Of a stretch of 64,000 nt of DNA, positions 32,105 through 51,633 are shown piece by piece; the first letter of the stretch is position 1, and each line of letters begins with the position of its first letter. The notes beneath the pieces were generated by a model, which did not search any database, was not told where the DNA came from, and was given only the letters and a program-made list of their open reading frames with translations. A program made the translations under genes and the position numbers. The DNA is from Pseudomonadota bacterium (lineage in GTDB: Bacteria; Pseudomonadota; Alphaproteobacteria; GCA-2746255): NCBI GenBank assembly GCA_040752895.1, contig JBFMHN010000001.1:163213-227212 (forward strand), written 5' to 3'.

Positions 32105-33405
32105 GCAGGGAAGTGAAGATCGCGATCGCCGGGCTTGGCACGGTTGGGGCTGGCACCTGTCGCATTCTGCGCGAACACGGGGAATTGCTTACCGAACGGT
32201 GTGGCTGCTCGCTCGTTGTCTCGGCGGTTTCCGCGCGCGACCGCAGCCGCGAGCGTGGGATCGATCTTCGGAACGTGCCATGGTTCGACGACCCGGTCCA
32301 GATGGCGGCGGAAGCCGACGCCGACGTCGTCGTTGAGTTGATCGGCGGCGCTGAAGGGATCGCGAAAGCGATCTGCGAGACGGCGCTCGGTCGTGGCCGC
32401 CACGTCGTCACCGCGAACAAGGCGATGCTCGCCCATCACGGGCTTTCGCTCGCCCGCCAGGCGGAAGAAAAGGGGCTGACCCTGGCTTATGAGGCGGCGG
32501 TGGCGGGCGGCGTGCCGATCATCAAGGCCCTGCGCGAGGGGCTTGCCGGCAACAAACTCCGCCGTATCTACGGCATCTTGAACGGTACAAGTAACTTTAT
32601 TCTGACGGAGATGCGCCGGTCCGGGCGTGAGTTCAAGGCCGTCCTGAAGGACGCCCAAAGGCTTGGCTACGCCGAGGCCGATCCCTCCTTCGACGTGGAC
32701 GGGATAGACGCCGCTCATAAGCTCGCCATTCTTGCTTCCGTCGCCTTCGGCTGCGAGATGGATTTTGCGGGCGTTTATACGGAAGGCATCCGGCATGTGA
32801 GCGCCCTGGACATCGTCTACGCCGAAGAACTCGGCTACCGGATCAAGCTTCTCGGCATCGTGCGGATGACCGAGGACGGGATCGAGCAGCGCGTGCATCC
32901 CTGCATGGTGCCGCTATCGGTTCCTATCGCCTATGTCGAAGGAGTCGACAACGCCATCGTCGCCGAAGGCGACTTCGTCGGAAACACCATGTTCGAGGGG
33001 CGCGGCGCCGGCGCCGGCCCGACGGCATCGGCCATCGTGGCCGACCTCGTGGATATTGCGCGCGGGAGAAGGCTTCCCACTTTCTCGGTGCCGGTGGGCC
33101 GTCTGGTGAAGGTCTCGTCGGCCCCGATGGAACGCCACAAGGGTGCCTATTACGTGCGGCTCATGCTGCTGGATCGCCCGGGCGTGATCGCCGATGTAAC
33201 GGCGATCCTGCGCGACGAGAACGTTTCGCTGGAGGCGATGCTTCAGCGCCAGCGCGCGCCCGGCTCGGCCGTCCCGATCGTGCTGACGACGCACGAGACT
33301 AGCGAGGCCGCTATGCGCCGCGCGCTCCAGAAAATCAAACGCTTGGATACGATTGCAGAATCGCCGAGAATGATCCGCGTCGAAGCCTTCGACGACCGGT
33401 CATAG
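32101..33405 (+). CDS. hom: Homoserine dehydrogenase
   Basis: KIAIAGLGTVGAG...NGTSNFILTEM...ACT C-terminal domain. A TTG start at 32101 overlaps the aminotransferase stop. Confidence 0.85.
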   Translation: MSREVKIAIAGLGTVGAGTCRILREHGELLTERCGCSLVVSAVSARDRSRERGIDLRNVPWFDDPVQMAAEADADVVVELIGGAEGIAKAICETALGRGRHVVTANKAMLAHHGLSLARQAEEKGLTLAYEAAVAGGVPIIKALREGLAGNKLRRIYGILNGTSNFILTEMRRSGREFKAVLKDAQRLGYAEADPSFDVDGIDAAHKLAILASVAFGCEMDFAGVYTEGIRHVSALDIVYAEELGYRIKLLGIVRMTEDGIEQRVHPCMVPLSVPIAYVEGVDNAIVAEGDFVGNTMFEGRGAGAGPTASAIVADLVDIARGRRLPTFSVPVGRLVKVSSAPMERHKGAYYVRLMLLDRPGVIADVTAILRDENVSLEAMLQRQRAPGSAVPIVLTTHETSEAAMRRALQKIKRLDTIAESPRMIRVEAFDDRS

Positions 33406-33426
33406 CGGAACGAACCGAGGGGGGAA

Positions 33427-34416
33427 ATGGATATCAAGGGAACGTTGGAGCGCAACCTCGCGCTCGAAGTGGTCCGGGTGACGGAAGCGGCGGCCCTTTC
33501 GGCCTCGCTCCTCATGGGGCGGGGTGACGAAAAGGCAGCCGACCAGGCGGCGGTGGACGCGATGCGGGCGGCGCTGAACGGCGTCGCGATCGACGGCACC
33601 GTCGTGATCGGCGAGGGCGAACGCGACGAAGCGCCCATGCTCTACATCGGCGAAAAGGTCGGCACCGGTTCGGGCCCCAAGGTGGACGTGGCGCTCGATC
33701 CCTTGGAAGGGACGACGATCACGGCGAAGGGCGGGCAGAACGCGCTCGCCGTCGTCGCTATGGCCGAACATGGCGGCTTTCTGAATTCCCCCGACGTCTA
33801 TATGGACAAGATCGCCGTCGGCCCCGGCCTGCCCGAGGGCATCGTGGACCTCGACGTGAGCCCAAAGGAAAACCTGCAAGCCCTTGCCAAGGCGAAGAAA
33901 CTGGACGTTGCGGATCTCGTCGTCTGCGTCCTCGACCGGCCCCGGCATCACGCCCTTATCGCTAGCGTCCGCGAAGCGGGCGCGCGCATCATGCTGATTT
34001 CGGATGGCGACGTGAGCGGCGTGATCGCGACCGCGACGAAGGACAGCGGCGTCGACATCTACATGGGGGTGGGCGGCGCGCCGGAAGGAGTCTTGGCGGC
34101 GGCGGCTTTGTGCTGCATCGGCGGCCAGATGCAGGGCAGGCTGCAGTTCCGCAATGACGACGAACGCGCCCGGGGCGAACGCTGCGGCATCACGAATTTT
34201 GATCGCAAATATGGCTTGAGCGAATTGGCCAGGGGCGACGTCATGTTCGCGGCGACCGGGGTGACGAACGGCTCGATGTTGAGGGGCGTGCGGCGCTTCG
34301 CTGGCGGGGCCTATACCTATTCGACGGTGATGCGCTCGAAGACGGGCACGGTGCGGATGATCGAGGCAAGGCACAATTTCAATCGCAAGTCCGGCTTCGA
34401 GCCGGTAGATCGCTAA
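33427..34416 (+). CDS. glpX: Fructose-1,6-bisphosphatase class II
   Basis: LEVVRVTEAAALSAS...DPLEGTT... is the GlpX signature. Confidence 0.85.
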   Translation: MDIKGTLERNLALEVVRVTEAAALSASLLMGRGDEKAADQAAVDAMRAALNGVAIDGTVVIGEGERDEAPMLYIGEKVGTGSGPKVDVALDPLEGTTITAKGGQNALAVVAMAEHGGFLNSPDVYMDKIAVGPGLPEGIVDLDVSPKENLQALAKAKKLDVADLVVCVLDRPRHHALIASVREAGARIMLISDGDVSGVIATATKDSGVDIYMGVGGAPEGVLAAAALCCIGGQMQGRLQFRNDDERARGERCGITNFDRKYGLSELARGDVMFAATGVTNGSMLRGVRRFAGGAYTYSTVMRSKTGTVRMIEARHNFNRKSGFEPVDR

Positions 34417-34426
34417 GTCTCTCGCG

Positions 34427-36217
34427 ATGGCGGAGCCCGAGCCGGGCGAAAGTTTCCTGGGGGTCGAACGCTCGCTTTCGGGCAAGCGCTGGCGGGCGAG
34501 GCTTGCGGACGCGCGGGCCGGCATGGCGTTTTCCCAGCGGCTCGACGTGCCCGAGATCATCGGCCGCGTCATCGCCGCCCGCGGCATCAAGCTGGAAGAG
34601 GCGGAAAGTTTTTTCGAGCCGACGCTCCGCAGGCTTCTTCCAGACCCTTCTCTATTCAAGGACATGGAGAAGGCCGCCCACCGCATCGCGGAGGCGATCG
34701 CCAAGGGGGAACGCGTTGCCGTCTTCGGCGATTACGACGTGGATGGCGCTACCTCCTCAGCCCTTCTGGAGCGCTTCTTCCGGGTAGTGGGGGCGGCGCT
34801 CCGTGTCTATATCCCGGACCGCCTGAAGGAAGGCTACGGGCCGAACGCGCCGGCCCTTCTTCGCCTGCGGGAGGAAGGGGTTTCCCTCGTGCTCACGGTC
34901 GATTGCGGAACGACGGCTTTTTCGGCCCTCGAGGCGGCGGCCGAGGCTTCCCTCGACGTCGTCGTGATCGACCACCATATCGGCGAGCCGAGGCTCCCGA
35001 AGGCGTTCGCCGTCGTCAACCCGAACCGGCTCGACGAAACCGGCCGGAACCGTGAACTTGCCGCGGTTGGGGTTGCCTATCTTCTGGTTGTTGCGGTGAA
35101 CCGGCATCTGCGGAAGTCCGGCTGGTATGGGGCGCGGCCCGAGCCCGACCTTCTCCAATGGCTCGACCTCGTCGCCTTGGGCACGGTCGCCGACGTCGCC
35201 CCCTTGGTCGGCCTCAACCGCGCTCTCGTCACCCAAGGCTTGAAGATGGCCGCCCGGCGCGGCAATCCCGGCATCGCAGCACTCGCCGACGTGGCGAGGC
35301 TCGACCAGCCGCCTACCGCCTACCATTTCGGGTTCCTTCTGGGGCCTCGCGTGAACGCCGGCGGGCGCGTCGGCGAGGCAGACCTTGGCGCCAGGCTGCT
35401 GGCAACCGAAGACCCGATCGAAGCGCGCGAGCTTGCTGGCCGTCTCGACGCCTTGAACGTTGAGCGCCAGCGGATCGAAGCGGAGGTCCTGGAGCAGGCG
35501 ATCGCAAGAGTCGAAGCCTCGGCTGGCGGCGCGATCGCCTTTGTCTATGGGGAAGGCTGGCATCCGGGCGTTGTCGGCATCGTCGCCAGCCGGCTTCGGG
35601 AACGCTACAACCGGCCCGCCTTCGTCGCCGCGGTGACCGGGGATCGTGCCGCCGGCTCGGGCCGTTCGGTGCCGGGCGTTGATCTCGGCAGCGCCGTCCT
35701 CGCCGCCCGCCAGGCCGGCCTTGTCGCAACCGGCGGCGGGCACGTCATGGCGGCGGGCTTCACAGGCACCGCCCAAAACCTGCCGAAGCTCCGGGAGTTC
35801 CTGAACGACCGCATCGGCGGGGCTCTTGCCAGGCTTGGCTTCGTCCCTTCCCTTGACTTCGACGGGGCGCTTTCGCCGGGGGCGGCGACGGCCGAGTTCG
35901 TCGGCCTCCTCGAACGTCTCGCCCCCTTCGGCTCCGGCAACGCCGAACCGCGGTTCGCCTTTGCCAATGCCCGCATTGCCTTTGCCGACGTCGTGGGCAC
36001 CGACCACGTCCGCTGCGTGATCACGGACGCCGCCGGCAGCGCCCGGCTCAAGGGAATCGCCTTCCGCGCCGTGGCGACGCCGCTCGGCCAGGCCCTGCTC
36101 GAAAAGGGCGGGGTGGGGCTGCACGTGGCCGGCCACCTGCGGGCCAACCGCTGGCAGGGGCGGGACGAAGTCCAGCTTTTCATCGAGGACGCCGCGAAGG
36201 CCCGCCCGGATGCCTAG
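34427..36217 (+). CDS. recJ: Single-stranded-DNA-specific exonuclease RecJ
   Basis: DHH motifs (VAVFGDYDVDGATS, VIDHH) and a DHHA1 domain. Confidence 0.85.
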   Translation: MAEPEPGESFLGVERSLSGKRWRARLADARAGMAFSQRLDVPEIIGRVIAARGIKLEEAESFFEPTLRRLLPDPSLFKDMEKAAHRIAEAIAKGERVAVFGDYDVDGATSSALLERFFRVVGAALRVYIPDRLKEGYGPNAPALLRLREEGVSLVLTVDCGTTAFSALEAAAEASLDVVVIDHHIGEPRLPKAFAVVNPNRLDETGRNRELAAVGVAYLLVVAVNRHLRKSGWYGARPEPDLLQWLDLVALGTVADVAPLVGLNRALVTQGLKMAARRGNPGIAALADVARLDQPPTAYHFGFLLGPRVNAGGRVGEADLGARLLATEDPIEARELAGRLDALNVERQRIEAEVLEQAIARVEASAGGAIAFVYGEGWHPGVVGIVASRLRERYNRPAFVAAVTGDRAAGSGRSVPGVDLGSAVLAARQAGLVATGGGHVMAAGFTGTAQNLPKLREFLNDRIGGALARLGFVPSLDFDGALSPGAATAEFVGLLERLAPFGSGNAEPRFAFANARIAFADVVGTDHVRCVITDAAGSARLKGIAFRAVATPLGQALLEKGGVGLHVAGHLRANRWQGRDEVQLFIEDAAKARPDA

Positions 36218-36285
36218 GGAAACCTTTGGAAGGGCTTGATTTTAGGCCCTTTCCAGTTTAGACGTGGCGCCCGATCATGTGCTTC

Positions 36286-36361
36286 GTCCCCATCGTCTAG
36301 AGGCCTAGGACTCCACTCTTTCAAGGTGGCAACACGGGTTCGAATCCCGTTGGGGACGCCA
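36286..36361 (+). tRNA. tRNA-Glu (anticodon TTC)
   Basis: GTCCCCATCGTCTAGAGGCCTAGGACTCCACTCTTTCAAGGTGGCAACACGGGTTCGAATCCCGTTGGGGACGCCA. Typical tRNA-Glu with a TTC anticodon. Confidence 0.85.
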
Positions 36362-36428
36362 ACAAAATTTAGAAGTTATAATCGGGCGGCGTGCTAAGCG
36401 GTTTCCATTGAAAGGGTAAGGATACCAG

Positions 36429-36866
36429 ATGCGTATCTTGGCACTTTTTTTGTTGCTGGCAACTCTCCTGCATATGGATTCCGCATCGGCCGCGAATCCG
36501 TCGAAGGATGCTGTCCTATACAAGAACCCGGGCTGCGTCTGTTGCGACGACTACGCCACCTACCTGAGGAAAAGGGGCATTCGGGTCACCGTCGAGGCGA
36601 CGGAGGACCTTGCGCTTATCAAGCGCCGACACGGCGTGCCGGAAGACCTTGAGGGCTGCCATACCGTACTGCTGGATGGCTACGTCATCGAGGGCCACGT
36701 TCCCATGAAAGCGCTGGACCGCCTTTTCGCCGAACGCCCCAAAATCACGGGTATCGCCCTGCCGGGCATGCCGGAAGGTTCTCCGGGCATGGGTGGGGAT
36801 AAATCCGGACCTTTTGAGGTTTATGCGTTCTCGAAAGGCGGCTCGAAAATCTACGCTATCGAGTAA
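36429..36866 (+). CDS. CopG-like DUF411 periplasmic metal (copper) binding protein
   Basis: Signal peptide MRILALFLLLATLLHMDSASA. The CxCC motif (NPGCVCCDDY) is diagnostic of the DUF411/CopG family. Also present: GMPEGSPGMGGDKSGPFEVY. Confidence 0.7.
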   Translation: MRILALFLLLATLLHMDSASAANPSKDAVLYKNPGCVCCDDYATYLRKRGIRVTVEATEDLALIKRRHGVPEDLEGCHTVLLDGYVIEGHVPMKALDRLFAERPKITGIALPGMPEGSPGMGGDKSGPFEVYAFSKGGSKIYAIE

Positions 36867-36964
36867 ACACCGGAGATACAGCCGGCGGCCGGCAATTCCA
36901 GGCCGCATTCCGTATCGAAAACGGATGGACCCGGAAAGCCGTTCCCGGCGACGGCAGGGCTTGC

Positions 36965-37315
36965 CTACAGGCGGATTCCGAACCTGCCCAGGATCGTCAT
37001 GTAGGACCAATAGCTTGCGGCCGTGACTGCGATGGCCAACGCCAGCGAGACGGCGAAGCCGAGGTTGAACCGCAAGGCCAAGGGCAGCGCCACGAAAAAA
37101 ACCAGGGATGGCAGTATCATCAACAGGATACTCCAACAAAGTCGCGCGACTTCGCTCTCGCTTCCGGTGTCGGCGTAAAGCCATAGAATGGCTAGCACCG
37201 AAACCAATGGAAGCGACGCCACGAGGCCTGCGAAAAGGGGGGAGCGTTTTGCGACTTCACCGATGGCGACCACCAACGCGGCCGTTATGGCGGTCTTGAT
37301 CATGAGGTAGAGCAT
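36965..37315 (-). CDS. Small polytopic membrane protein (DUF3147-like)
   Basis: 116 aa with four hydrophobic helices. Confidence 0.4.
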   Translation of the reverse strand: MLYLMIKTAITAALVVAIGEVAKRSPLFAGLVASLPLVSVLAILWLYADTGSESEVARLCWSILLMILPSLVFFVALPLALRFNLGFAVSLALAIAVTAASYWSYMTILGRFGIRL

Positions 37316-37483
37316 GTGCGAACCCTTCGGCAGGAGAATGGAACATCTTCATTTTAGTCGCCGAACTTAAGAGCGCGAAAGCGGCGTTTCCGTTGGCCGT
37401 GGCCGTTTTAGGTTGTTTGGCCTTGCGATCCGCCTATAAGCTGAAAAGATGCTGGCAAGACCCCGAGCAAGGTCCAGAGACCA

Positions 37484-38326
37484 ATGCCCGACTTCCTGCA
37501 GGCCAACGAGCCCCTGATCCGCCTGGCCGCCTTCTTTGGCGTCCTTGTCGTCATGGCGACGTGGGAAGCGCTCGCACCCCGCCGCCAGCAGGCCGTTCCC
37601 CGCCGGACGCGCTGGCCCAACAACCTCGGCATCGTCGTCCTCAACACGGTGGTGCTCCGGCTGGCCTTTCCAATCGCCGCCGTCGGTTTTGCCCTTCTCG
37701 CCGAGGCCAAGGGCTGGGGCTTGTTCCACGCGCTTGCCATGCCTTGGTGGGTTGCCGTCGTTGCTTCCGTGATCGTGCTCGACCTTGCGATCTATTTCCA
37801 GCACGTGCTGTTCCACGCGGTGCCCGCGCTGTGGCGGCTGCACCGCATGCACCACGCCGACCTCGAGTTCGACGTCACCACCGGCCTGCGCTTCCACCCC
37901 GTGGAGATCCTGCTCTCGATGGGCATCAAGCTTGCCGTGATCGCCGCCCTCGGGCCGCCCGCCGTCGCCGTGCTGGTCTTCGAGGTGCTGCTGAACGCGA
38001 CTTCGATGTTCAACCACGGCAATGTCCGTATCCCGGCCGGTATTGATCGCGCGCTGCGCTGGTTCGTGGTCACGCCGGACATGCACCGCGTCCATCACTC
38101 GATCCTGCCCCACGAGACCAACAGCAATTTCGGCTTCAACCTGCCCTGGTGGGACCGCCTGTTCGAGACCTATCGCGCCCAACCGGCGACTGGGCATGAG
38201 GGCATGACCATCGGCATCGAACAGTTCCGCAAACCCCGCGACCTGTGGCTCGACCGGATGTTGATTCAGCCGCTTCTCGGCCCGGCCAGCGGTTACCCGA
38301 TCAACCGGCGGGAAGGGCCGGGATGA
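37484..38326 (+). CDS. Fatty-acid hydroxylase / sterol-desaturase superfamily membrane protein
   Basis: His boxes HVLFH, HRMHHAD and HRVHH between transmembrane segments. Confidence 0.7.
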   Translation: MPDFLQANEPLIRLAAFFGVLVVMATWEALAPRRQQAVPRRTRWPNNLGIVVLNTVVLRLAFPIAAVGFALLAEAKGWGLFHALAMPWWVAVVASVIVLDLAIYFQHVLFHAVPALWRLHRMHHADLEFDVTTGLRFHPVEILLSMGIKLAVIAALGPPAVAVLVFEVLLNATSMFNHGNVRIPAGIDRALRWFVVTPDMHRVHHSILPHETNSNFGFNLPWWDRLFETYRAQPATGHEGMTIGIEQFRKPRDLWLDRMLIQPLLGPASGYPINRREGPG

Positions 38327-38556
38327 AAAGCCGGGATACTGGCTGCCACACCCATAGCTTCTTGGCCGGCGTCGTTGCGACGATGCCAGGAGCGAGCGTG
38401 AAGCGGGAGGGTTTGATGCCTCCAACGGGCGAACAAAGCTTGATCTATCTCAAGGAGACGGCGACCAAAAACCCATACATTGGAAACTTTCTGTTCCCGA
38501 TCGGCCTACCCATAGGCGATCCCGAATACCCACTTGATCAGAAAGGAATAAGACGA

Positions 38557-38919
38557 ATGAAACAGACTTCCATGGAAAGGCTTATTTCCATCGCCACTGC
38601 GGCGGTTGTTGTAGTGGGGATGGCAATCGCGGCGTCTGGTCATGCGCAGGCAGAAGAAGGAGCTACACCTTCTCCGCGTGACGGGCAGGGTCAAGGCATG
38701 GCGCCGATGCAGCAGCAGATGATGCAGGGCATGATGCAGCAAATGCAGAATTGCATGGGGCAAATGGGTGCTATGGGTGGCGACGTATCGCAAGATCAGA
38801 TGCGCGCCCAGATGATGCAGCGCATGCAGTCCTGTACGACACAAATGCAATCCGGCAAAGGACAAGCTCCGAAGGACTCCAGCTCGGACCAGAAAGGTGC
38901 TCCTGGCGACCGGCGTTGA
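38557..38919 (+). CDS. Secreted Met/Gln-rich low-complexity protein (putative periplasmic metal-binding)
   Basis: ATG at 38557 after a GAAAGGA RBS. Signal peptide ...AASGHAQA, then MAPMQQQMMQGMMQQMQNCMGQMGAMGG...MRAQMMQRMQSC (many Mx2-3M spacings, 2 Cys). Confidence 0.55.
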   Translation: MKQTSMERLISIATAAVVVVGMAIAASGHAQAEEGATPSPRDGQGQGMAPMQQQMMQGMMQQMQNCMGQMGAMGGDVSQDQMRAQMMQRMQSCTTQMQSGKGQAPKDSSSDQKGAPGDRR

Positions 38920-39099
38920 GCGATCAACACTGGCCGGCGTTTCCCTTGCGCCTAGAAGTATCCTATGGGGAATGAAATAAGATGAAGCGTCTCTTCATCC
39001 TGGACGGTGCCCGCCGCAGTACCATGGATGAACTGGCGGTGGAAACACTTGCCGCCAATAAGGTTCTGGTGTTCTGATGCTTACAACGGAGGCATCCGG

Positions 39100-39219
39100 A
39101 TGATGAACGGCATGGAGGGAATGGGGTGGGGCATGGGCTTGATTGGCATATTAGTGGCCGCTCTTCTCGTCCTTGGAATCGCGGCGCTCGTAAAATATCT
39201 CCTTGGGAGCCGCGAATGA
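39100..39219 (+). CDS. 39-aa Met/Gly-rich single-TM peptide
   Basis: Strong RBS AACGGAGG 7 nt before the ATG at 39100. Sequence MMNGMEGMGWGMGLIGILVAALLVLGIAALVKYLLGSRE. Confidence 0.45.
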   Translation: MMNGMEGMGWGMGLIGILVAALLVLGIAALVKYLLGSRE

Positions 39220-39286
39220 CGAGTGGGACGGCAGAGAAAGAATGAACGCACGTTACCATCGGAATGTTGCATGGAGAGCATCTGTC

Positions 39287-39826
39287 ATGGGTAGAGCACC
39301 GTTAACCGTTAAACGCCTGATTGTGGTGGGCGTCGCCGTCGCCGCGGCCGTGGCGACACTCTTAGCAAATGACCCGTCCTACGCCCAAGGACGAGGCGGA
39401 GCGGATAAGGCGCAGGGCAAATCGGATGGCGTCAAGGCCCCTTCGGAGAAGCGGCCTGACTTCTCTGGCCGGCCTGAATGGGCAACCAAGCCCGAAGATC
39501 CGAAAGCCCTTAAAGAGCAACGCCGGGAACAAGCCAAGGAGCGACGCAAGGCCGTTAAGGACGAGCTTGAAAAGGAAGATTCGAAAGCCCTTAAGGAGCA
39601 AGGCCGGGAACAAGCCAAGGAGCGACGCAAGGCCGTTAAGGACGAGCTTGAAAAGGAAGATTCGAAAGCCCTTAAGGAGCAAGGCCGGGAACAAGCCAAG
39701 GAACGACGCAAGGCCGTTAAGGACGAGCTTGAAAAGGAAGATTCGAAAGCCCTTAAGGAGCAAGGCCGGGAACAAGCCAAGGAACGACGCAAGGCCGTTA
39801 AGGACGAGCTTGAAAAGTCGGACTAG
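39287..39826 (+). CDS. Secreted charged tandem-repeat protein
   Basis: Signal peptide MGRAPLTVKRLIVVGVAVAAAVATLLA, then about 4.5 copies of the 23-aa unit ALKEQGREQAKERRKAVKDELEKEDSK. Confidence 0.55.
   Translation: MGRAPLTVKRLIVVGVAVAAAVATLLANDPSYAQGRGGADKAQGKSDGVKAPSEKRPDFSGRPEWATKPEDPKALKEQRREQAKERRKAVKDELEKEDSKALKEQGREQAKERRKAVKDELEKEDSKALKEQGREQAKERRKAVKDELEKEDSKALKEQGREQAKERRKAVKDELEKSD
39503..39810 (+). repeat. 69-bp in-frame tandem repeat, about 4.5 copies
   Basis: Near-identical 69-nt units (cccttaaggagcaaggccgggaacaagccaaggagcgacgcaaggccgttaaggacgagcttgaaaaggaagattcgaaag). The first copy has diverged (aaagagcaacgc). Confidence 0.8.
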
Positions 39827-39852
39827 ACCAGGTCCGGCCCCTGCTTTTCTTT

Positions 39853-41538
39853 CTAAGCGGGCATTTCCTCGTAGCCGACGACCCGTTCGAAATCCCGTTG
39901 CAACAGCGGTTCCGTGTCGAGGAGCTGGCTAGCGGCGTCGAAGTCGAGGGTGCGCCGGATGAAGCGTTTCGCGAGGCAGGCTTTTCTTCCGTCTTTCTTT
40001 TCGGCGAGATCGGCAGCCGCCTCTTCCAGCAGCAAGCACGCGGCGAGCAAGACCGCCATGCGGTCCATCAGGCGCCGCGCGATCCGCGAGGCAACTTCCG
40101 GGCTTTTGGTGGCCTGTCGGACGCCATCCGCGCAGAGGGCAAGCGCGCTCCGCAAAGGCTTGGCGCATTCTTCTTCCAGGGGGCTCTTGACCCCACCCAG
40201 GACGCCTTCGATGCGCGCCATGAACGCGCCGAAGCCTTCGCCGTTCCCCGCGACCAGTCGCAGCACCTCGAGCGCCTGAATGTTCGCCGTTCCCTCCCAC
40301 ACGGTAAGCACCTGGGCGTCCCGGAGAAGCCTGGGCGTCACGTAGTCTTCCGTGTAGCCGACGCCGCCCAGAACCTCGATCGCGCTGCTCGCGGCGCGGA
40401 TCGCCTTCTCCGCCGTCCAGTATTTTGCCAGCGCCGTCGTCAGCCGCCGCCAGGGAAGTCGTTTGGCGTTCTTCTCCGATTCATCAAACGCGACCGCGGC
40501 CTCGAAGGCGAGGGTGAGGGAGGCCTCGGCGTTCATCTGGAGATCGAGCAGCACGCTCTGCACCATGGGAAAGGCCAGGAGGATTTTTCCGAAGGCCTGG
40601 CGATGGGAGGCGTAGGCGATCGCCTCCAGGAAGGCCCGTCGGCCGACGGCGGCGGCGGCGAACGCGTTGTGGACGCGGCTGTAATCGAGCGCTTCGAGCA
40701 TGAGCCGCAAGCCCCTGGGCGGCGGGCTCACCTCGAAGGCGAACGCCCCTTCGAGTTCGATCTCGCCGGAAGCAAGCCCGCGCGTGCCGAGCTTCGTCTT
40801 CAGCCGCCGAATGCGGTAGCGGTTCGGGCTTCCATCCGCCAGTGCCTTCGGCACCAGGTAAAGACCGAGGCCTTCCGTCCCTCCCGGTGCTTCTTCCGGC
40901 CTTGCGGTCGCCAGCGCCACATCTGAATCCGGGTTGCTCGCAAACCATTTGAAGCCGGTAAGCCGGAAATGTTCGCCATCTCGTTTCGCAACCGTAGCCG
41001 TTGCGGCAAGGTCGCTTCCGCCGTCGAGCTCGGTCGCCCATGTGCCGCCGGTCAGCGCCTTTCCGTCCAGCCGGAGGAGTCCTTCGAGATAGTGCTTCGC
41101 CGCGGCTTTTTCGGGAAGCTTACCGAGGATATAGGCCACGGCGCCGGTGAGCGTCGCCGGGCAGTGGATAGAGATATCCGCCTGCGACAGCAGATATCCC
41201 ATGAGGAAACTCATGAGAAAAGGCTCCGCCTTCGGTCCGAAGTTTAGGCCCACGATGCCCCGCGCATAAACGTCGCGGTGGATTTCCGCGTAAAGCGGGT
41301 TGTGGCGGACGCGGTTCGTGAGCCGGCCGAAGCGGTCGTGGGCTTCGAGCACGGGGGGCGCGAAGCGGTCCGTGTATTCCGCCTCGCAGTCTACGTCGCT
41401 TCCGACCCAGGCGCCGAAGGCGTGGAGTCTTTCCCCGTTCCGCGCAAGAAGGTCGGGCGCGCGGCGAGCAAGCAGCGTCTTCAGGTTTGGATCTACCGCG
41501 AAGAAATTCTGGCCTCGGGTTTCTTGCTGGTAGCGCAT
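39853..41538 (-). CDS. AidB-like large acyl-CoA dehydrogenase family protein
   Basis: 561 aa. ACAD fold with an extended N-terminus (...YTEDYVTPRLLRDAQVLTVWEGTANIQALEV...). Lies 21 nt downstream of the amidase gene. Confidence 0.7.
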   Translation of the reverse strand: MRYQQETRGQNFFAVDPNLKTLLARRAPDLLARNGERLHAFGAWVGSDVDCEAEYTDRFAPPVLEAHDRFGRLTNRVRHNPLYAEIHRDVYARGIVGLNFGPKAEPFLMSFLMGYLLSQADISIHCPATLTGAVAYILGKLPEKAAAKHYLEGLLRLDGKALTGGTWATELDGGSDLAATATVAKRDGEHFRLTGFKWFASNPDSDVALATARPEEAPGGTEGLGLYLVPKALADGSPNRYRIRRLKTKLGTRGLASGEIELEGAFAFEVSPPPRGLRLMLEALDYSRVHNAFAAAAVGRRAFLEAIAYASHRQAFGKILLAFPMVQSVLLDLQMNAEASLTLAFEAAVAFDESEKNAKRLPWRRLTTALAKYWTAEKAIRAASSAIEVLGGVGYTEDYVTPRLLRDAQVLTVWEGTANIQALEVLRLVAGNGEGFGAFMARIEGVLGGVKSPLEEECAKPLRSALALCADGVRQATKSPEVASRIARRLMDRMAVLLAACLLLEEAAADLAEKKDGRKACLAKRFIRRTLDFDAASQLLDTEPLLQRDFERVVGYEEMPA

Positions 41539-41559
41539 GGGCGGAACTCTTTTGCAACC

Positions 41560-42369
41560 CTACTTCACGGGTGCGCGCTCTTTGGCGATCGCTAGGATTC
41601 GCTCGTCGTCTTCCCAGACGAGAGACGTGTAATCGAAGCCATGTTCGATCGTCGGTTTTACAATCTGAAAATAGGGCGAAAGGTCGAAGTCGCGCGGCGC
41701 GAACAGGCTGTGATGCCGGATATGCAGAATATCGCGCGCGAAGTATCCGCCCTGCCGATGGGAATAAACCCAGTCCGTACAGACGATGGGGAGGATCGGG
41801 TAGCGCACCTCTTGGAAGGCGCGTGCGATCAGGGTCGAGCAGATGGCCCGCGTCGGGTCGCCGCTGCCCAGCGCCAGCATTCGCCGCCGCCAGCGGACCG
41901 GCACCGGCGGCGTCGGCCACAGATAGCGCAAGAGGTCAATGACGTTCTTTAGGTCGTATGCATGCCCCAGATTGGCAAGGGCAGATTCGATGACGCGCCT
42001 GCAATCGGCTTCGCTCAACCCGATCGGGCGGCAGATTCGCGTATTCAATTCCCCATATTTCGAGATTGGCACGGCGGTGACACCATGCTTGAGGTCCGCT
42101 TCGATCAGCGTTTTTGGTTCTTCGTTGTTGCGGGGTGGACCCAGCGCTTCGCCGATATAAAGTGCGGCGTGCGACCAGGTGGATTGCGTGAGATATTTTA
42201 TCGCAACGCTTAAGCGCTGGTTCCCCTCGACGAGAAGAATATCGCCGGGCCTTAAGGTCGCCTGCAGCTTCTCGATCGGAGTGACGGAAAAGGGTTCGTA
42301 TTTGCGCAACGGCTGCGCAAGGTAGTCGGCGAGGACTTTGCCGATTTTCTCGACCAGGCGATTGAGCAT
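41560..42369 (-). CDS. Permuted papain-fold amidase, YiiX/C92 (DUF830) family
   Basis: PGDILLVEGNQRLSVAIKYLTQSTWSHAALYIG and later ...RAICSTLIARAF. The His-before-Cys order and motifs parallel E. coli YiiX (GDIIFQ...SHTGM...YCSEVVWKVY). No signal peptide. Confidence 0.6.
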   Translation of the reverse strand: MLNRLVEKIGKVLADYLAQPLRKYEPFSVTPIEKLQATLRPGDILLVEGNQRLSVAIKYLTQSTWSHAALYIGEALGPPRNNEEPKTLIEADLKHGVTAVPISKYGELNTRICRPIGLSEADCRRVIESALANLGHAYDLKNVIDLLRYLWPTPPVPVRWRRRMLALGSGDPTRAICSTLIARAFQEVRYPILPIVCTDWVYSHRQGGYFARDILHIRHHSLFAPRDFDLSPYFQIVKPTIEHGFDYTSLVWEDDERILAIAKERAPVK

Positions 42370-42437
42370 GGCGCTCGATCCTTAAGGCTTTGGCCGACCC
42401 TCTCCAAAGACCGCCAGCATAACGTGCTTTGAGCGCC

Positions 42438-44393
42438 TTACGCGACTCCGGCAAGCGCCGAAACGGGCATGGCTTTCTCCCTCGTCTCGCGTAGCGTAAG
42501 GCGTTCGACCGCCGCTTCCAGAATCATGCGCAAAAGATCCGCATAGCGAATCCCGCCGAATTCCGCCATCAGGTTGAGTTTTCCGTCCCAGCACCAGCCG
42601 GGATTCGGGTTTACTTCCAAGAGCTTGATCGTGCCGTGCGCGTCGGCGCGGAAGTCGAAGCGGGCGTAGTCCCGGCAGCCCAAACGCTCGAAAAGTTGCA
42701 TCGAAGCATCGACGATCAACCGCGCCTTTTCCGGTTTGAGTTTTGCCTCTTGGTAGCGAATATCCTTCCAGTAGGGCGAATCGGGAAGCCACTTCGATTC
42801 GTAACCAAGGATACGCGGCAGGTTTGGATCGAGGCGGCTATAATCGACTTCGAGAACGGGAAGTGCCTGCAACTCCTGCCCGCTGTTGCCGATGATGCCG
42901 ACGCTGTATTCCGACCCGGTAAGGAACTCCTGGGCGAGAACCGAACGGCCGGGCAGCGTTTCCTTGAGGCGTATGAGATAGGAGACAAGCTGTTCCGGCG
43001 TATAGACGACGGAGTCCTGCACGATGCCGATGCTGCTATCACCCAAATTCGGCTTCAGGATCGCCGGGAAAACAGAAGGCATCGTCGCCGACTGGTCTTC
43101 CGGCCTCATGTAGGTCTCAAGCGGCACCGGGATGTCGAGCGCGGCGGCTATGCATCGGACGAGCGCCTTGTCGTAACACATGGCGAGGCAGGCCGGTCCG
43201 GCACCGGTGTAAGGGATATCGAGCATCTCGAGGAGCGCTGGTACGTGCAGCTCTTGCAGCGCGTCGTTGTTGAAGCCCTCGTCACAGAGATTGAAGACGA
43301 AGTTCGGCTGGTCCTTCTCGAGGTCCACGTGAAGGGTGGCGTGGTTGTTGATGTAGTTGAACGCATATCCATGAAGCTCGGAAAGAGCGTCTTTCAGGCG
43401 CTGAACCGTGTCCATGTCTTCCGGATTGAACTGGCCGGCCTTCTTTACGGAGTCCGGAAGGCGGTGGTCGCCCATCACGACGGTGACTTTTCGGATGATC
43501 TTGCCGCGAATGGGTTTTGGATCTTTTTGCGGCGCGCTCGCTATCAGGAAAAAGCGCTTGGCCATCATGCCGAGATCTTGGTTTTGGGTGGATTCCGCCT
43601 CAAGCGTGGCGTGGGTACGAACGTTCTGGAAGCCAACGCGTTTCAAGACTTCGAGAATGCGCTCCTGGGAATAGAGGCGTTCGGCATAGAATTGGTCGGC
43701 GATAACGCCGCGTTCGGCGTGGACGACGACTTCGCGGGAGACAAGTCGGTCGCCGTCGGCGGTCAACGACCGTTCGCGGCAAACGAAATGGTTGCCGTCA
43801 ATCCATTCCCAGGATCGGCGTTCGAGGTTCTTGCGCATCCAGTCGCCGTCCGTCAGGTCGAGCGCAATCGTGCCGTGGGACCGCAGGGCCTCCTTCACGG
43901 TCTCCAGCACCCGGATGTCGTCTTCTTCGTTGTCGAAGTAGCCGAAGGAATTTCCCATCAGCATGACGGCGTCGAAATTGCCGTTCTTCGAGCGGAAGGT
44001 CCGGGCGTCGCCTTCGTGGAAGGTGACCTTGAGGCTCGTCTTCATCGCCCGTCGGCGGGCGAGGCGAATGAGGTAGCGCGAACGGTCCACACCGACGACG
44101 TTCTCAAAGCCGCGGCGGGCAAGCTCCAGCGAATGCCGGCCTTGGCCGCAGCAGAAATCCAGGATCCGATCGGTCGGGCGCAGGGCCGTTGCCCGCAGCA
44201 GAATGTCCACCTCGCGGATGGTGTTGGCGTCGTTCTCGACGACGTCGCCGTCCGTTCGCAAATAAAGCGAATCAAAAAGGTCGCGCCACCATTCCTGGGG
44301 AAGGTGGCTGGCTAGGTCGGCCACCGGGCCGAGAAAGGCCCTGGACCGTGGTTTGGGAGAATTGGCTTTCGTGGAGGCAGTCGGTTTCGTCAT
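42438..44393 (-). CDS. Fusion protein: class I SAM-dependent methyltransferase (N-terminal) plus D-Ala-D-Ala-ligase-family ATP-grasp enzyme (C-terminal)
   Basis: MTase motif I ILDFCCGQGRHSLELARRGFENVVGVDRS. The C-terminal Ddl-like N-domain and ATP-grasp carry NFVFNLCDEGFNNDALQELHVPALLEMLDIPYTGAGPACLAMCYDKALV, ILKPNLGDSSIGI and KLLEVNPNPGW. Confidence 0.7.
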   Translation of the reverse strand: MTKPTASTKANSPKPRSRAFLGPVADLASHLPQEWWRDLFDSLYLRTDGDVVENDANTIREVDILLRATALRPTDRILDFCCGQGRHSLELARRGFENVVGVDRSRYLIRLARRRAMKTSLKVTFHEGDARTFRSKNGNFDAVMLMGNSFGYFDNEEDDIRVLETVKEALRSHGTIALDLTDGDWMRKNLERRSWEWIDGNHFVCRERSLTADGDRLVSREVVVHAERGVIADQFYAERLYSQERILEVLKRVGFQNVRTHATLEAESTQNQDLGMMAKRFFLIASAPQKDPKPIRGKIIRKVTVVMGDHRLPDSVKKAGQFNPEDMDTVQRLKDALSELHGYAFNYINNHATLHVDLEKDQPNFVFNLCDEGFNNDALQELHVPALLEMLDIPYTGAGPACLAMCYDKALVRCIAAALDIPVPLETYMRPEDQSATMPSVFPAILKPNLGDSSIGIVQDSVVYTPEQLVSYLIRLKETLPGRSVLAQEFLTGSEYSVGIIGNSGQELQALPVLEVDYSRLDPNLPRILGYESKWLPDSPYWKDIRYQEAKLKPEKARLIVDASMQLFERLGCRDYARFDFRADAHGTIKLLEVNPNPGWCWDGKLNLMAEFGGIRYADLLRMILEAAVERLTLRETREKAMPVSALAGVA

Positions 44394-44399
44394 GGGTCA

Positions 44400-44716
44400 G
44401 GTATAGCCGTGGAAAGTTGGATTGTGGGCCAGCGGGGTGTTCGCCAAGAGTAAGATCATTTAGCCAATCGCGTAAGTACGCCAACCTTCGTCAAAGTCAA
44501 TAGGGAACCTTGCAGCTTCCGTTTCTCCAGGTTGTCCGACACTTTTTTTCCAGCCGCCTCGGCCGGGATAGGGGCGCAATTTGAACCGTAATTCTATCAA
44601 ATAATATTCGCTATTTTAAAATAAAAAATAATAATAAATCATAAATCGTAAGCATAGTTTAAATATTGATTAACATGATTACTGTAGCCTGATTTCGGGT
44701 TTTGGAGGAACAGGCG
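44400..44716. promoter_or_regulatory. AT-rich divergent promoter island
   Basis: 44570-44700 is extremely AT-rich (ataatattcgctattttaaaataaaaaataataataaatcataaatcg...). It is flanked by the methyltransferase-ATP-grasp gene on the minus strand and a small secreted-protein gene on the plus strand. Confidence 0.4.
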
Positions 44717-45031
44717 ATGCAATCCATTATGGATCGGAAAAGTTTCCGCGTTGTCCGAGCTTTCCTGTTGGGGCTGGCATTTGCGGTTGTGATTACACTG
44801 GGGGATGTTCCTTTCGCCTCCGGGAAGCTGGACCCCCTGTGGTCGTTCGGCTTGAACCAAATGGAGGTTGCGCCGGCGCAAATGGGGCCTTCGGCGACGT
44901 CGCCGGAAAAACGCCAGCCGGCTTTTGCCGGGCGACCGCCGGCGTTCGAGGGGGATGCGGAGGTCCAAGCGCGTGCGCGCCGGCTGATGACCCTGCTGGT
45001 AATCGCTTTTTTGCAAGAGGCGGGTCATTAG
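44717..45031 (+). CDS. Small hypothetical secreted or membrane protein
   Basis: Perfect RBS GGAGGAA 6 nt upstream of the ATG at 44717. N-terminal signal-like MQSIMDRKSFRVVRAFLLGLAFAVVITLG. Confidence 0.4.
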   Translation: MQSIMDRKSFRVVRAFLLGLAFAVVITLGDVPFASGKLDPLWSFGLNQMEVAPAQMGPSATSPEKRQPAFAGRPPAFEGDAEVQARARRLMTLLVIAFLQEAGH

Positions 45032-45040
45032 ACCTCCGGC

Positions 45041-45874
45041 CTAGCTCGCCTCGCGCTGGATCCGTTCCGCGAAGTCGCGGAGATAGCAAAGCCCCTGGAT
45101 GGCGCGCGAGCCATACCAGGAAGTCATCTCGCCATCGATCCGGGCAAGCCTGACCCCTTCGCAGGCAAACCGTGCCCGGAAGGCTTCTACGTCCGCGGGT
45201 GTGAAGGCGTAAGGCTCGCTTGGGAAAAGAACAAGGTCGGTCTCCTTCAGGCAAACCCTGCTGATTTCGATGGTGGGGTAGCGTTCCGGTCCTTCGTTGC
45301 CGACCGTTTGCCAGTGGAGAAGGGCCAGGGTTGCCGCGATATAGGTGTCGCGGGCGACCGTCATCCAGGGGTCCTGCCAGATGAGGTAAAGAACCTTTCG
45401 GTTTGGCCAGTCTTCGGCCGCCGCCGCCAGTTCCGCATAGGCTTCGAGGAAGCGGGCGGACAACCTTTCCGCTTCCGCCTCCCGGTCGAAAAGGCTTCCC
45501 ATCAGGCGATAGAGAGGAAGGTTGTCGAGGGGCGCAAGCGGGTGCGTCACGATTACCTCGATGCCGGCTTCTGCGATCGCCTCCGCCATTGCTCTGGGGT
45601 TTTCATCCACGTTGACGATCGCATGGCTCGGCCGCAGCTCCTGCAAACGTTCCATCCGGATTTTCTTCGTACCGCCAAGGCTCGGCACGCGTGCGACCCC
45701 TTCTTTCGGATGGATGCAGTAATGGGTGCGCCCGACGATATGGTTGCCTAAGCCCAGATCAAACAGCAATTCCGTGACGCTTGGCACCAGCGAAACGATG
45801 CGCGCGTTTCCCTTGGCCGGCGCGTGAATGACGCCGCCGGCGTCCCTCCGGGTTTCTTCGGCCGCTATCGCCAT
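45041..45874 (-). CDS. TroA/BtuF-like periplasmic-binding-fold protein (Peripla_BP_2) without a detectable signal peptide
   Basis: ...RIVSLVPSVTELLFDLGLGNHIVGRTHYC...VIVTHP... is the class III SBP fold. ATG at 45874. The N-terminus MAIAAEETRRDAGG is not hydrophobic. Overlaps the GDPD gene by 10 nt. Confidence 0.5.
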   Translation of the reverse strand: MAIAAEETRRDAGGVIHAPAKGNARIVSLVPSVTELLFDLGLGNHIVGRTHYCIHPKEGVARVPSLGGTKKIRMERLQELRPSHAIVNVDENPRAMAEAIAEAGIEVIVTHPLAPLDNLPLYRLMGSLFDREAEAERLSARFLEAYAELAAAAEDWPNRKVLYLIWQDPWMTVARDTYIAATLALLHWQTVGNEGPERYPTIEISRVCLKETDLVLFPSEPYAFTPADVEAFRARFACEGVRLARIDGEMTSWYGSRAIQGLCYLRDFAERIQREAS

Positions 45875-46608
45875 CGCTCCGGCTCCGGGTAGTCCGTGAA
45901 AATGGCGTTGACGCCCCAGCCGCGCAGCACCCTCGCGCGTTCCGGGTCGTTCACGGTGTAGGCGAGTACGGCGTAGCCGCCGGCAAGCAGAAATTCGGTT
46001 TTGGCCTTGGTCAGCAGGTCGGCGTTCGGATGGACGGAAACGCAGCCCGAGGCCCGTTCGGCCAGGACCACCTCGTTCGGCACGTCCCGCACGATGAGGC
46101 CGCGCGGAAAGTCCGGCACGACAAGGGCGGCTTTGCGAAGGATCCGTGGCTGGCTTGCCGAGATCAAGGGCGGTGGTTTCGCGTTTGGCCAGAGATCTTG
46201 GAGAAGGGTGACGACAGCCTCCGCAACGGCTTCTTCTCTCTCCGCTTCGGCCTTGATCTCGACGTTTGCGAACAGGCCTCGCTCGGTGCAAAGGGCGACG
46301 AACGCGGCCAGTGTCGGCACCCGTTCACCGGCGAACTCGGGCGCGAACCAGGCGCCGGCGTCGAGGGCCGCGACCGTTTCGTAGGAGGTTTCGGCGACCT
46401 TGCCGCGGCCGTTCGTCGTTCGATCGAGGGTGGCGTCGTGGAGAAGGACAAGCTCGCCTGTTGCCGTCTGTCGGACGTCCACCTCGACCCAATGTGCGCC
46501 AAGATCGGCGGCGCGGCGAATGGCGGCGAGCGTGTTTTCAGGCGCGCTTCCGCTGGCGCCGCGATGGGCAATCACCGGATTGAGCCAGGGCAGGGGGCCT
46601 TGGGGCAT
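45865..46608 (-). CDS. ugpQ: Glycerophosphodiester phosphodiesterase
   Basis: VIAHRGASGSAPENTLAAIRRAADLGAHWVEVDVRQTATGELVLLHD is the GDPD motif. Confidence 0.8.
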   Translation of the reverse strand: MPQGPLPWLNPVIAHRGASGSAPENTLAAIRRAADLGAHWVEVDVRQTATGELVLLHDATLDRTTNGRGKVAETSYETVAALDAGAWFAPEFAGERVPTLAAFVALCTERGLFANVEIKAEAEREEAVAEAVVTLLQDLWPNAKPPPLISASQPRILRKAALVVPDFPRGLIVRDVPNEVVLAERASGCVSVHPNADLLTKAKTEFLLAGGYAVLAYTVNDPERARVLRGWGVNAIFTDYPEPERWR

Positions 46609-46689: not shown

Positions 46690-47979
46690 TTACGCCGAGG
46701 CCGCCTCGCGGCCCAGTTCACCGAAGAAAGCCCCCTCCAGGTTGGCGCCGGTGATCGTCGTCTTGACCAGAACGACGTTTCGCAAATCGGCACCGCGCAG
46801 ATCGGCCTGGCTCAGGTTGGCGCCCGTTAAATCCGCTCCCTGTAGGCAGGCGTCGAGGAGGGAAGCGCGGCTCAAATTCGTTGGCCAGATGCGGCCCGTG
46901 GAAGTGCCGTTCGGGTCCCGAAGCTCGACCGGGAAAAGCCGGGCGCGGCGAAGATTGGTGCCGCTCAGATCCGTTTCCGAAAGATTGGCGCCGGCCAGCA
47001 TGCACCCTTCCAGGTTAGCACCCTGCATGGCCGCACCGGAAAAATCGGTCAGCTCGAAAAGGCTGTCGCGCAGATTGGTTTCCGAAAGGTTGGCCCCCTT
47101 GAGGCTGGCGCCGCTTAGGTCCAGGCCGGAGAGGTTGAGCCAGCTCAAGTCATACCCGTCCAGCACGGCCTGCTCGCCTTTCGCCCCACGTGTCGCGATC
47201 CATTTCTTATGGGAGAGAAGAATGGCCTCGACCGTCTTTTGTCGCAGTTCTGGCGCCGAGGGAAGTTTTGCCTTGTGAAGCTTGGCGAGGGACAGCGGAA
47301 CGTCCACAATTTTGGCCGTTTCGAGATTGGCGTTCGTGAAGTTTGTCCCCATCACGTGTGTCTTGACGAGTATGGCGTTGCTCAGGTTGCAATTCGCAAG
47401 GTTGGTGCTTTCGAGGTTCGCGCTGGAAAGGTTTGCCTGGGTCAGGTTGGCGCCTTGAAGATCCGCGTTTTGAAGCCGGACCCCGATCAGGTTGGCGCTT
47501 TGAAGGTCTGCGCCGACGGCCGAGCACCCCTTCATGTCGGCGCGCGTCAGATTGGCGCCTCTTAGAATGGCCTCGTCCAGAACGGAATGACCAAGATTGC
47601 TGCCGACGATCTGCCAGCTGCCTTTCTCGCCCACGACGGCGAGGCGGCCTTCTCTCAAGTCGGCCTTTTCCAGCGTGGCACCACTCAGGTCGGCCTTGTA
47701 AAGATTAACGCCGTGCATGTCGGCGCTTTTAAGATTTGCGTTTTTCAGGACCGAACCGGAAAATTCCGCCGCGTACAGATCCGCTCTTTCGAAATTGGCG
47801 TCGGTCAGGTTGCAGTTTTTCAGATTCGCGCCGTTCAGGCTGGCCCGGCTTAAATTCACGCTCGAAAGGTCAAGGCCGGAAAGGTCGACTTTCGACAACT
47901 CGGCTCGCTTGCCGTCCGTCTTGCCCTGCAGCCATTTCTCGTGTTTCTGGATAAGCCCCAGGATTTCATGCGGAGTCAT
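46690..47979 (-). CDS. Pentapeptide-repeat protein, paralogue 1
   Basis: 429 aa. Two modules, each opening with hhxxHxKWlxxxGxxGxxAxLxGxDLS (MTPHEILGLIQKHEKWLQGKTDGKRAELSKVDLS and LLSHKKWIATRGAKGEQAVLDGYDLS). Each is followed by long A(D/N)LxG pentapeptide runs. Confidence 0.75.
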   Translation of the reverse strand: MTPHEILGLIQKHEKWLQGKTDGKRAELSKVDLSGLDLSSVNLSRASLNGANLKNCNLTDANFERADLYAAEFSGSVLKNANLKSADMHGVNLYKADLSGATLEKADLREGRLAVVGEKGSWQIVGSNLGHSVLDEAILRGANLTRADMKGCSAVGADLQSANLIGVRLQNADLQGANLTQANLSSANLESTNLANCNLSNAILVKTHVMGTNFTNANLETAKIVDVPLSLAKLHKAKLPSAPELRQKTVEAILLSHKKWIATRGAKGEQAVLDGYDLSWLNLSGLDLSGASLKGANLSETNLRDSLFELTDFSGAAMQGANLEGCMLAGANLSETDLSGTNLRRARLFPVELRDPNGTSTGRIWPTNLSRASLLDACLQGADLTGANLSQADLRGADLRNVVLVKTTITGANLEGAFFGELGREAASA

Positions 47980-48081
47980 GTTGGTCCCCCTTCGAGGGCG
48001 AGGCGGAAGGGTTTTTCCTTTGCCGTCCCCTTAAAATACGAATGATCTCCCGGCCGGAGATCGGGAAATTGGCTCTGCCGG

Positions 48082-49380: not shown

Positions 49381-49600
49381 GCGCTTTCGTTGCGCGGAGG
49401 TAATCGCTTTTTTCGAAATGCTATAAGATCAAATTGCCTAAGTATTTCAATAAGTTTCGATTCGGATTCGCCTGAAATTTTGTCAAATTTTGTCTAAAAT
49501 TTTTCCGATCCAGCGCAGCCGCGAGATAGCGGCGCTTTATGTGAAAGCCGGTTCGGTCGTTAAGAAAGATTAGCGAGGTAGGGGAAGGGGCGGCTCTCGG

Positions 49601-51325: not shown

Positions 51326-51633
51326 GGGGTTGTTCCGGCGGCTGCGGGTTTCCGTAGACGGTGACATGGCTTCGTAAGAAGGATGTTGTCGGCTGCGGAG
51401 GGTCCCATTCGATGTTTTTTTCCGACGGCTTAATCTCTCGCGGGCGAGGGCGGTTGCTCTTGCGCGCCATCTCTTCTTCGTCACAGTTCTTCGGGGGCAG
51501 CAAACCTACCGTCCGCTTGTCCGTCACGGCATCGATCGCCGGGCGGGTGGAAAGAAGCGGAAGAACCCGGGCGCCTGATCGGGCCGGGTTCTCCCGTGAA
51601 CGGGAAATCCCATTCACACAGACGGAGTCTGCA

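Follow-up and report, generated by a model that had tools for sequence, protein, structure and literature searches.

We analysed a 64,000-nucleotide stretch of the genome of a Pseudomonadota bacterium (Alphaproteobacteria, GCA-2746255; contig JBFMHN010000001.1, positions 163,213 to 227,212, here called the window) with regard to the run of small genes at 36.4–39.8 kb, directly after a tRNA-Glu gene. In our best explanation, to which we give somewhat better than even weight, this run is an accessory locus on the chromosome that has undergone partial decay and whose products handle soft metals in the cell envelope, copper being the likeliest; it is not an island that could be shown to have integrated at the tRNA. 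Its surviving parts, a CopG protein and a secreted protein rich in methionine, glutamine and cysteine (hereafter the Met-rich protein), would most plausibly bind or buffer periplasmic copper; this assignment is made from conserved motifs and guilt by association.

The locus is for the most part ordinary, with a CopG gene, a lipid hydroxylase gene and a few genes for small envelope proteins after a tRNA. What is new is the family of the Met-rich protein, which is unnamed, is represented by some 30 of 5.8 billion proteins and lies repeatedly beside copper-type pumps together with genes for SHOCT-domain and DsrE-family proteins. The accessory genes listed in an earlier sequence-only reading of this DNA were all recovered in place, one of them with a wrong family label (Table 1).

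Two candidate copper proteins of the envelope

The gene that follows the tRNA-Glu encodes a member of the CopG/CutG family (DUF411, PF04214), to which P. aeruginosa CopG and R. capsulatus CutG belong. The protein matches the Pfam family with 81.8 bits (cutoff 27; E 2.9e-23) and aligns over 110 residues (30–139) to the structure of P. aeruginosa CopG (PDB 6WIS; E 8.9e-23), which bears out the earlier call of a secreted CopG/DUF411 protein with a CxCC motif. In addition to the signal peptide, both CopG motifs are intact: GCVCCDD (C36-V-C38-C39) and M114PEGSPGM121 (M-x6-M) line up with the corresponding motifs of 6WIS. In published work, the CxCC cysteines and the methionines of MPxGSPGM coordinate a tetranuclear copper cluster; the protein that holds it is periplasmic, has a thioredoxin-like fold and contributes to resistance against copper (PMC7558416, PMC8456105). 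Judging from the 110-residue alignment, the window protein probably has the same thioredoxin-like fold. If it acts as in Pseudomonas, where CopG holds a Cys-bridged Cu4 cluster, it could interconvert Cu(I) and Cu(II) or pass them on.

The surroundings of the gene are less typical. Published CopG/CutG genes sit in cutFOG, copA or cus clusters (PMC7558416, PMC8456105), and homologs with 52–62% identity to the window protein follow a multicopper oxidase gene in three independent contexts, either directly or after one short unannotated open reading frame (ORF). In contrast, the window gene stands alone. Besides CopG, the only metal-named gene seen in the window is that of the divalent-ion tolerance protein CutA1, 12 kb upstream (24423–24758).

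The Met-rich protein was correctly anticipated as a secreted Met/Gln-rich product. We set its start at 38557 by family alignment and a ribosome-binding site. The public annotation (NCBI protein P0121, 198 aa, 38245–38919) starts the protein 78 codons too early, as all relatives start at the signal peptide. The signal peptide is followed by two amphipathic helices, each with a QMM..M..CM motif. A search with the single sequence gave only three relatives, while a profile search gave 31 proteins among the 5.8 billion, and an exhaustive HMMER search gave 21 clusters among 1.84 billion representatives. None of the family members has a match in Pfam, NCBIfam or PDB. We searched by tblastn for plasmid-borne copies of the gene and found none, a result to which the low-complexity filter may have contributed.

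Alignment of the family defines a core of MG.M.QQMM.GMMQQMQ.CM.QM, a short linker and MR.QMM.RM..CM..M. Ten positions are invariant (M51, M59, C66, M67, M82, R83, M86, M87, M90 and C93), both cysteines among them, and many members have C-terminal tails with histidine and cysteine. In an AlphaFold2 model the helices span residues 49–73 and 79–99, with a block-mean predicted local distance difference test score (pLDDT) of 76–83. The methionines and cysteines fall on one face of each helix, with resultants of 0.60 and 0.73 that were matched by 0.1% and 1% of shuffles, respectively.

Runs of methionines along a helix face are a recognised arrangement of Cu(I)/Ag(I) ligands, as in CusF, PcoE/SilE and Ctr1. 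Compared by description only, PcoE/SilE and CusF are likewise small, secreted and Met-rich, and the present family resembles them in the i, i+3/4 spacing of methionines on predicted amphipathic helices and in having its genes beside copper export genes. It differs in its two invariant cysteines, in a core that is rich in glutamine rather than histidine and in constituting a very small family of its own. By analogy with other Met-rich periplasmic proteins, the window protein may present the Met/Cys face of its two helices to Cu(I) or Ag(I) and bind or buffer these ions. If it does bind Cu(I), it would represent a new type of small periplasmic copper-handling protein.

Recurring neighbourhoods and loss of genes

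We compared the window with the other loci in which the Met-rich gene was found. On a 15-kb contig from a different organism (L172), genes for a cupredoxin, a copA-type oxidase and CopB, the latter two 1.9 kb upstream, are found together with a divergent ArsR-rhodanese regulator gene and then the genes for a fatty-acid hydroxylase, a DedA-rhodanese fusion, the Met-rich protein and a SHOCT protein. L175 has the order Met-rich, SHOCT, DsrE, methyltransferase. In L177, a metagenome-assembled genome (MAG) of Novosphingobium, MerR, BV97_02767, UPF0060 and divergent ArsR-rhodanese genes precede the series MBL, MFS, Met-rich, SHOCT, DsrE, methyltransferase; 3.5 kb further on there is a canonical Cu(I) ATPase with the CPC, NX6YNX4P and MxxSS motifs, with DUF2933 and MerR genes. 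L178 has the same core arrangement. L176 has a divergent N-terminal fragment of an ArsR-type regulator gene, then MBL, MFS, Met-rich, SHOCT and DsrE genes and an N-terminal fragment of a heavy-metal P-type ATPase, closely similar to the L177 enzyme. In L179 the order is HMA-ATPase (with YN and MxxSS motifs), MFS, Met-rich, DUF302, and in L180 the Met-rich gene has divergent CusBA genes upstream and is followed by genes for a CPH-type ATPase and DUF2933.

When L176, L177 and L178 are treated as one architecture and the window is counted, copper genes (those for copper-type P1B ATPases, copA/copB or CusBA or, in the window, CopG) are adjacent to the Met-rich gene in five of the six context classes. 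Outside the window, the Met-rich gene is usually followed by SHOCT and DsrE genes, the last encoding a sulfur carrier, with an ArsR-rhodanese regulator before them and copper pumps alongside. A UbiE-type methyltransferase gene after DsrE is among the recurring neighbours. The literature on SHOCT, DsrE and copper gave one relevant mention only, of a silver-induced SHOCT membrane protein in Haloferax.

Two further membrane proteins of the window recur in these neighbourhoods and presumably accompany the candidate copper proteins. The 116-aa protein is 38–41% identical to the BV97_02767 gene products of L177 and L178, whose genes lie ∼3.3 kb upstream of the Met-rich gene there. It matches NCBIfam PRK09272.1-2 with E 8.9e-33 and 112.9 bits, below the cutoff of 119. 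The label DUF3147-like, which it had been given from the sequence, is wrong, as there is no match to Pfam DUF3147 even at E ≤ 10.

The second of these proteins had been recognised as a His-box fatty-acid hydroxylase, which agrees with its match to PF04116 (96.4 bits, cutoff 31; E 2.4e-27) and with the three His boxes of the translation, HVLFH, HRMHH and HRVHH (HxxxH, HxxHH and HxxHH). Along its full length of 280 aa it has 72% identity with the hydroxylase of L172, whose gene lies upstream of the Met-rich gene with one gene in between. Upstream of the hydroxylase gene we found no conserved block common to the window and L172. A di-iron enzyme of this type presumably remodels membrane lipid. 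Assignment to the ornithine-lipid hydroxylase OlsE (equivalog NF052566) was rejected, with 85 bits against a cutoff of 475.

Directly after the Met-rich gene there is a 31-codon remnant of a DsrE gene, identified by tblastn and by alignment to four full-length DsrE proteins. With the L175 and L176 DsrE proteins, tblastn gave 83% identity over 23 aa and 69% over 26 aa, with E about 1e-7. Relative to the full-length protein of 117 aa, the remnant keeps the first seven and the last 24 codons, and ∼86 codons have been deleted in frame, including the conserved segment LLCGxCMDARG. The same sequence is present in an independent ENA assembly (L081) and is therefore not an assembly artefact. By its sequence this segment is a pseudogene remnant, as a complete DsrE domain was not found. 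It was absent from the sequence-only reading, and one metagenome annotation calls it as a tiny gene. The locus thus offers a clear example of an in-frame deletion pseudogene that automatic annotation misses or calls as a tiny ORF. A second, truncated DsrE fragment of 54 aa is found in L178 (2761–2925), in a locus with an intact DsrE gene, and DsrE genes seem prone to decay in the neighbourhoods of the Met-rich gene.

Compared with the ArsR-rhodanese sulfur/stress operons of L172 and L176–L178, the window keeps the BV97_02767-family protein, the fatty-acid hydroxylase, the Met-rich protein and the DsrE stub, whereas the regulator, the MBL and MFS genes, the SHOCT gene and an intact DsrE gene are missing; the gene order also differs. 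No homolog of the SHOCT gene was found anywhere in the 64 kb. On this comparison the window has lost the SHOCT, regulator, MBL/MFS and pump genes, and its DsrE gene has been cut down to the stub.

Table 1. Features of the window at the tRNA-Glu gene and in the genes that follow it
Feature	Position	Strand	Basis
tRNA-Glu (UUC)	36286–36361	+	ARAGORN; Rfam 57.8 bits
Junction upstream of the CopG gene, 67 nt, 43% GC	36362–36428	.	GC 61% (61.1%) for the whole window
CopG/DUF411 periplasmic copper protein, 145 aa, signal peptide	36429–36866	+	Pfam DUF411 and PDB 6WIS
Small, strongly hydrophobic membrane protein, 116 aa, PF28289 (BV97_02767) / PRK09272	36965–37315	−	Precomputed annotation and NCBIfam
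Fatty-acid hydroxylase / sterol-desaturase-type membrane enzyme, 280 aa	37484–38326	+	Pfam PF04116 and His boxes
Secreted Met/Gln/Cys-rich protein, 120 aa	38557–38919	+	Family alignment and ribosome-binding site
DsrE-family gene remnant, 31 codons	38982–39077	+	tblastn and alignment to four full-length DsrE proteins
39-codon ORF (putative gene), Met/Gly-rich N-terminus and one transmembrane helix	39100–39219	+	GGAGG ribosome-binding site upstream
Secreted Lys/Glu-rich protein, four 27-aa repeats	39287–39826	+	Tandem Repeats Finder (TRF)
Terminator-like hairpin over the 3′ end of the repeat-protein gene	39817–39838	+	Consensus match only

Copper, sulfur, chance or integration

The proposal of Cu(I) handling in the sequence-only reading stands in part. 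It is favoured by the intact CopG motifs and by the copper genes beside the Met-rich family; against it, the window provides none of the expected machinery. No homolog of a copper pump (including a CopA-type copper ATPase), a multicopper oxidase, the Cus system (CusAB), a MerR regulator or an ArsR-rhodanese regulator was found in the 64 kb. Near the cluster, the intergenic regions contain no CueR-type palindrome, CusR-type box or inverted repeat; a promoter scan gave no matches. The cluster genes are loosely spaced, with gaps of 60–230 nt and one gene on the opposite strand, and the mature part of the window Met-rich protein has no histidine. CopG and the Met-rich module never recur together in the context loci, so their adjacency in the window may be due to chance. 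Moreover, the set of contexts is small, three of them being variants of a single architecture. Finally, the recurring partners rhodanese, DsrE and MBL point to sulfur chemistry as much as to copper. These points all weigh against a copper locus.

The last of them leads to a serious rival, in which the Met/Cys-rich protein and its partners handle reactive sulfur species (sulfide or persulfide) or a chalcogen, and copper genes are merely frequent neighbours in stress islands. Its strength is that rhodanese, DsrE and MBL genes turn up with the same regularity as copper genes. The ArsR-rhodanese regulator is encoded divergently upstream in L172, L177 and L178, and the ArsR-type fragment of L176 is homologous to it; an MBL-fold gene, the DedA-rhodanese fusion, DsrE and the UbiE-type methyltransferase are the other recurring partners, and the two invariant cysteines of the Met-rich family would suit such a role. 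However, in L179 and L180 the Met-rich gene lies directly against copper-type ATPase genes with no sulfur genes nearby, the helix-face methionines have the arrangement known from Cu(I)/Ag(I) ligands, and the window has an intact CopG gene whereas its sole gene of the sulfur type is defunct. We consider a role in sulfur chemistry alone to be decidedly improbable. Less probable again is that there is no functional unit at all, and that unrelated small accessory genes have gathered behind a tRNA where constraint is low. The mixed strands and wide intergenic gaps would fit such a gathering, as would the occurrence of CopG elsewhere without the other genes, the lack of relatives of the 39-codon ORF and the repeat protein in the context loci, and the variability of what follows the recJ-linked tRNA-Glu, described below. 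Yet, although the Met-rich family is extremely rare, four elements of the window (the BV97_02767-family protein, the fatty-acid hydroxylase, the DsrE remnant and the Met-rich protein itself) are found again in other genomes, as a group or in pairs.

Copper and sulfur may also be linked. We put forward, tentatively and as a possibility that we rate clearly below that of the eroded copper locus, that the Met-rich, SHOCT and DsrE proteins form an undescribed periplasmic module coupling copper export to sulfur-carrier chemistry, of which the window would hold a minimal version with only the Met-rich protein, alongside CopG. Such a module could catch Cu(I) on the Met/Cys face and then hand it to persulfide carriers, or shield it from them. 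If true, this would be a hint of a link between copper and sulfur-carrier proteins.

A different matter is how the genes came to lie where they do. Upstream of the tRNA-Glu, the order aminotransferase-hom-glpX-recJ is kept, as had been proposed, in most of 160 alphaproteobacterial loci compared by tblastn, which were retrieved with RecJ from genome and metagenome collections. A tRNA-Glu on the + strand lies ≤400 nt after recJ in 44 of the 131 loci with sufficient flank, and it is therefore the last element of a conserved aminotransferase-hom-glpX-recJ-tRNA-Glu block. Beyond the block, almost every relative has a different set of genes, and the most frequent family there is present in 6 of the 44 loci. 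The AT-rich junction after the tRNA was also borne out (43% GC against 61% for the window) and gave neither an inverted repeat nor a sigma-70-like promoter match. The drop in GC at the tRNA-Glu is partly apparent, because recJ itself is unusually GC-rich (69%). The best RecJ match has only 64% identity, whether among genomes (185,579 species) or among metagenome contigs. Two Logan contigs of the same organism (L082 and L083, corresponding to 33194–36310 and 33626–36360 of the window) end inside the tRNA-Glu and at its last base, respectively; these ends would fit several genomic copies of the tRNA-Glu or variable downstream sequence.

The sequence-only reading took the cluster for a possible small genomic island inserted at the 3′ end of the tRNA-Glu. 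On this view, the island would since have degraded and lost its integrase and att site. The recJ-linked tRNA-Glu is a real integration site in the group, since in a Stellaceae MAG (L006; 11834–13090) a phage-type integrase gene lies 63 nt after it (Pfam E 1.1e-21) and in another locus (L066; 11804–13650) the gene of a phage major capsid protein comes next. The window cluster resembles tRNA-integrated islands in lying directly 3′ of this tRNA and in its accessory content. Synteny ends at the tRNA-Glu, the junction is low in GC and the cluster slightly below the window, the gene families are patchy and rare, and the gene decay fits an ageing acquisition; the homologous module in the Novosphingobium MAG lies ∼4–9 kb from a phage-type integrase at the edge of the locus, and the breaks in the two Logan contigs can be counted on the same side.

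Nevertheless, the cluster differs from tRNA-integrated islands in that neither an integrase nor a direct repeat accompanies it and its composition shows no clear break. The 3′ end of the tRNA-Glu, for which a repeat had been predicted downstream, is not repeated anywhere in the 64 kb: as a 25-mer with ≤3 mismatches it matched only the tRNA itself, and blastn-short together with the longest exact k-mers gave only the T-loop of a tRNA-Pro (14 nt) and chance 10–12-mers, a 10-mer at 39891 being at chance level. No integrase, transposase or other mobility gene was found among the genes checked at 22–64 kb. The GC content of the cluster, 58.9% against 61.1% for the window, corresponds to z = −1.1 relative to equal-sized windows, and its tetranucleotide distance to z = +2.2, which is exceeded by the hom-glpX-recJ core block. 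The per-gene GC content at third codon positions (0.61–0.86) is within the range of the window.

The proposed right-hand edge fares no better. At this distance (RecJ identity of at most 64%), none of the relatives' recJ loci carries any gene found downstream of the window tRNA-Glu. The supposedly core genes beyond 39850 are equally absent from these loci, and 39850 is therefore not a synteny boundary. The fatty-acid hydroxylase gene and a methyltransferase/ATP-grasp gene (42438–44393; 64.5% identity), which lie on either side of this edge, both have their homologs on the 15-kb contig L172, and the edge looks arbitrary. The only other assemblies of the same organism, located by exact-protein look-ups with RecJ and the AidB-like protein, are 99.9–100% identical and have the same arrangement. 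We regard a degraded island as unlikely. When no close relatives exist, a break in synteny next to a tRNA is insufficient for calling an island.

Remaining genes of the locus and the surrounding window

The two ORFs at the far end of the cluster are lineage-specific additions. The 39-codon ORF, which corresponds to the 39-aa Met-rich membrane peptide of the sequence-only reading, is called as a gene in L081. It has no Pfam match and no homolog in any context locus, and we treat it as a putative gene. With SHOCT proteins from other loci it gives a weak alignment, confined to their Met/Gly-rich, membrane-spanning part; assignment as a SHOCT-domain protein (PF09851) was rejected, as it has no C-terminal SHOCT domain.

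The ORF is followed by the gene for the secreted tandem-repeat protein, which was found as described earlier. The underlying DNA array (39494–39817) has a period of 81 nt and 4.0 copies with 98% matches (TRF). In L081 the array has two copies (7147–7308) rather than four, on a contig that is otherwise 99.9% identical. This difference is either real copy-number variation or the result of short-read assembly collapse. The repeat protein has no family match and no relative in the context loci, and the possibility that it is a decayed SHOCT domain was rejected for lack of similarity. The terminator-like hairpin at the end of the gene is directed at the 3′ end of a convergent gene that encodes an AidB-like acyl-CoA dehydrogenase.

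This dehydrogenase gene belongs to an operon-like trio on the − strand (39853–44393). The other two members encode a C92 permuted-papain amidase and a fusion protein (651 aa) in which an S-adenosylmethionine methyltransferase is joined to a D-Ala-D-Ala-ligase-type ATP-grasp domain. This fusion is the methyltransferase/ATP-grasp protein mentioned above, and its counterpart is a partial gene at the end of L172. Further downstream, ∼90 nt of almost pure A/T (44590–44680) lie between divergent genes, and the GC content over 44400–44799 is 43.5%, compared with 61% for the genome.

Three adjacent genes for pentapeptide-repeat proteins of 429, 432 and 468 aa occupy 46690–51007 on the − strand, and a 300-nt segment is duplicated within them (47261–47560 and 50208–50507; 70% identity). 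They are flanked by genes for a Peripla_BP_2 binding protein, a TonB-dependent receptor, a FecCD permease and an ABC ATPase (45041–46291 and 51361–56298), which together look like a siderophore or cobalamin-type uptake system.

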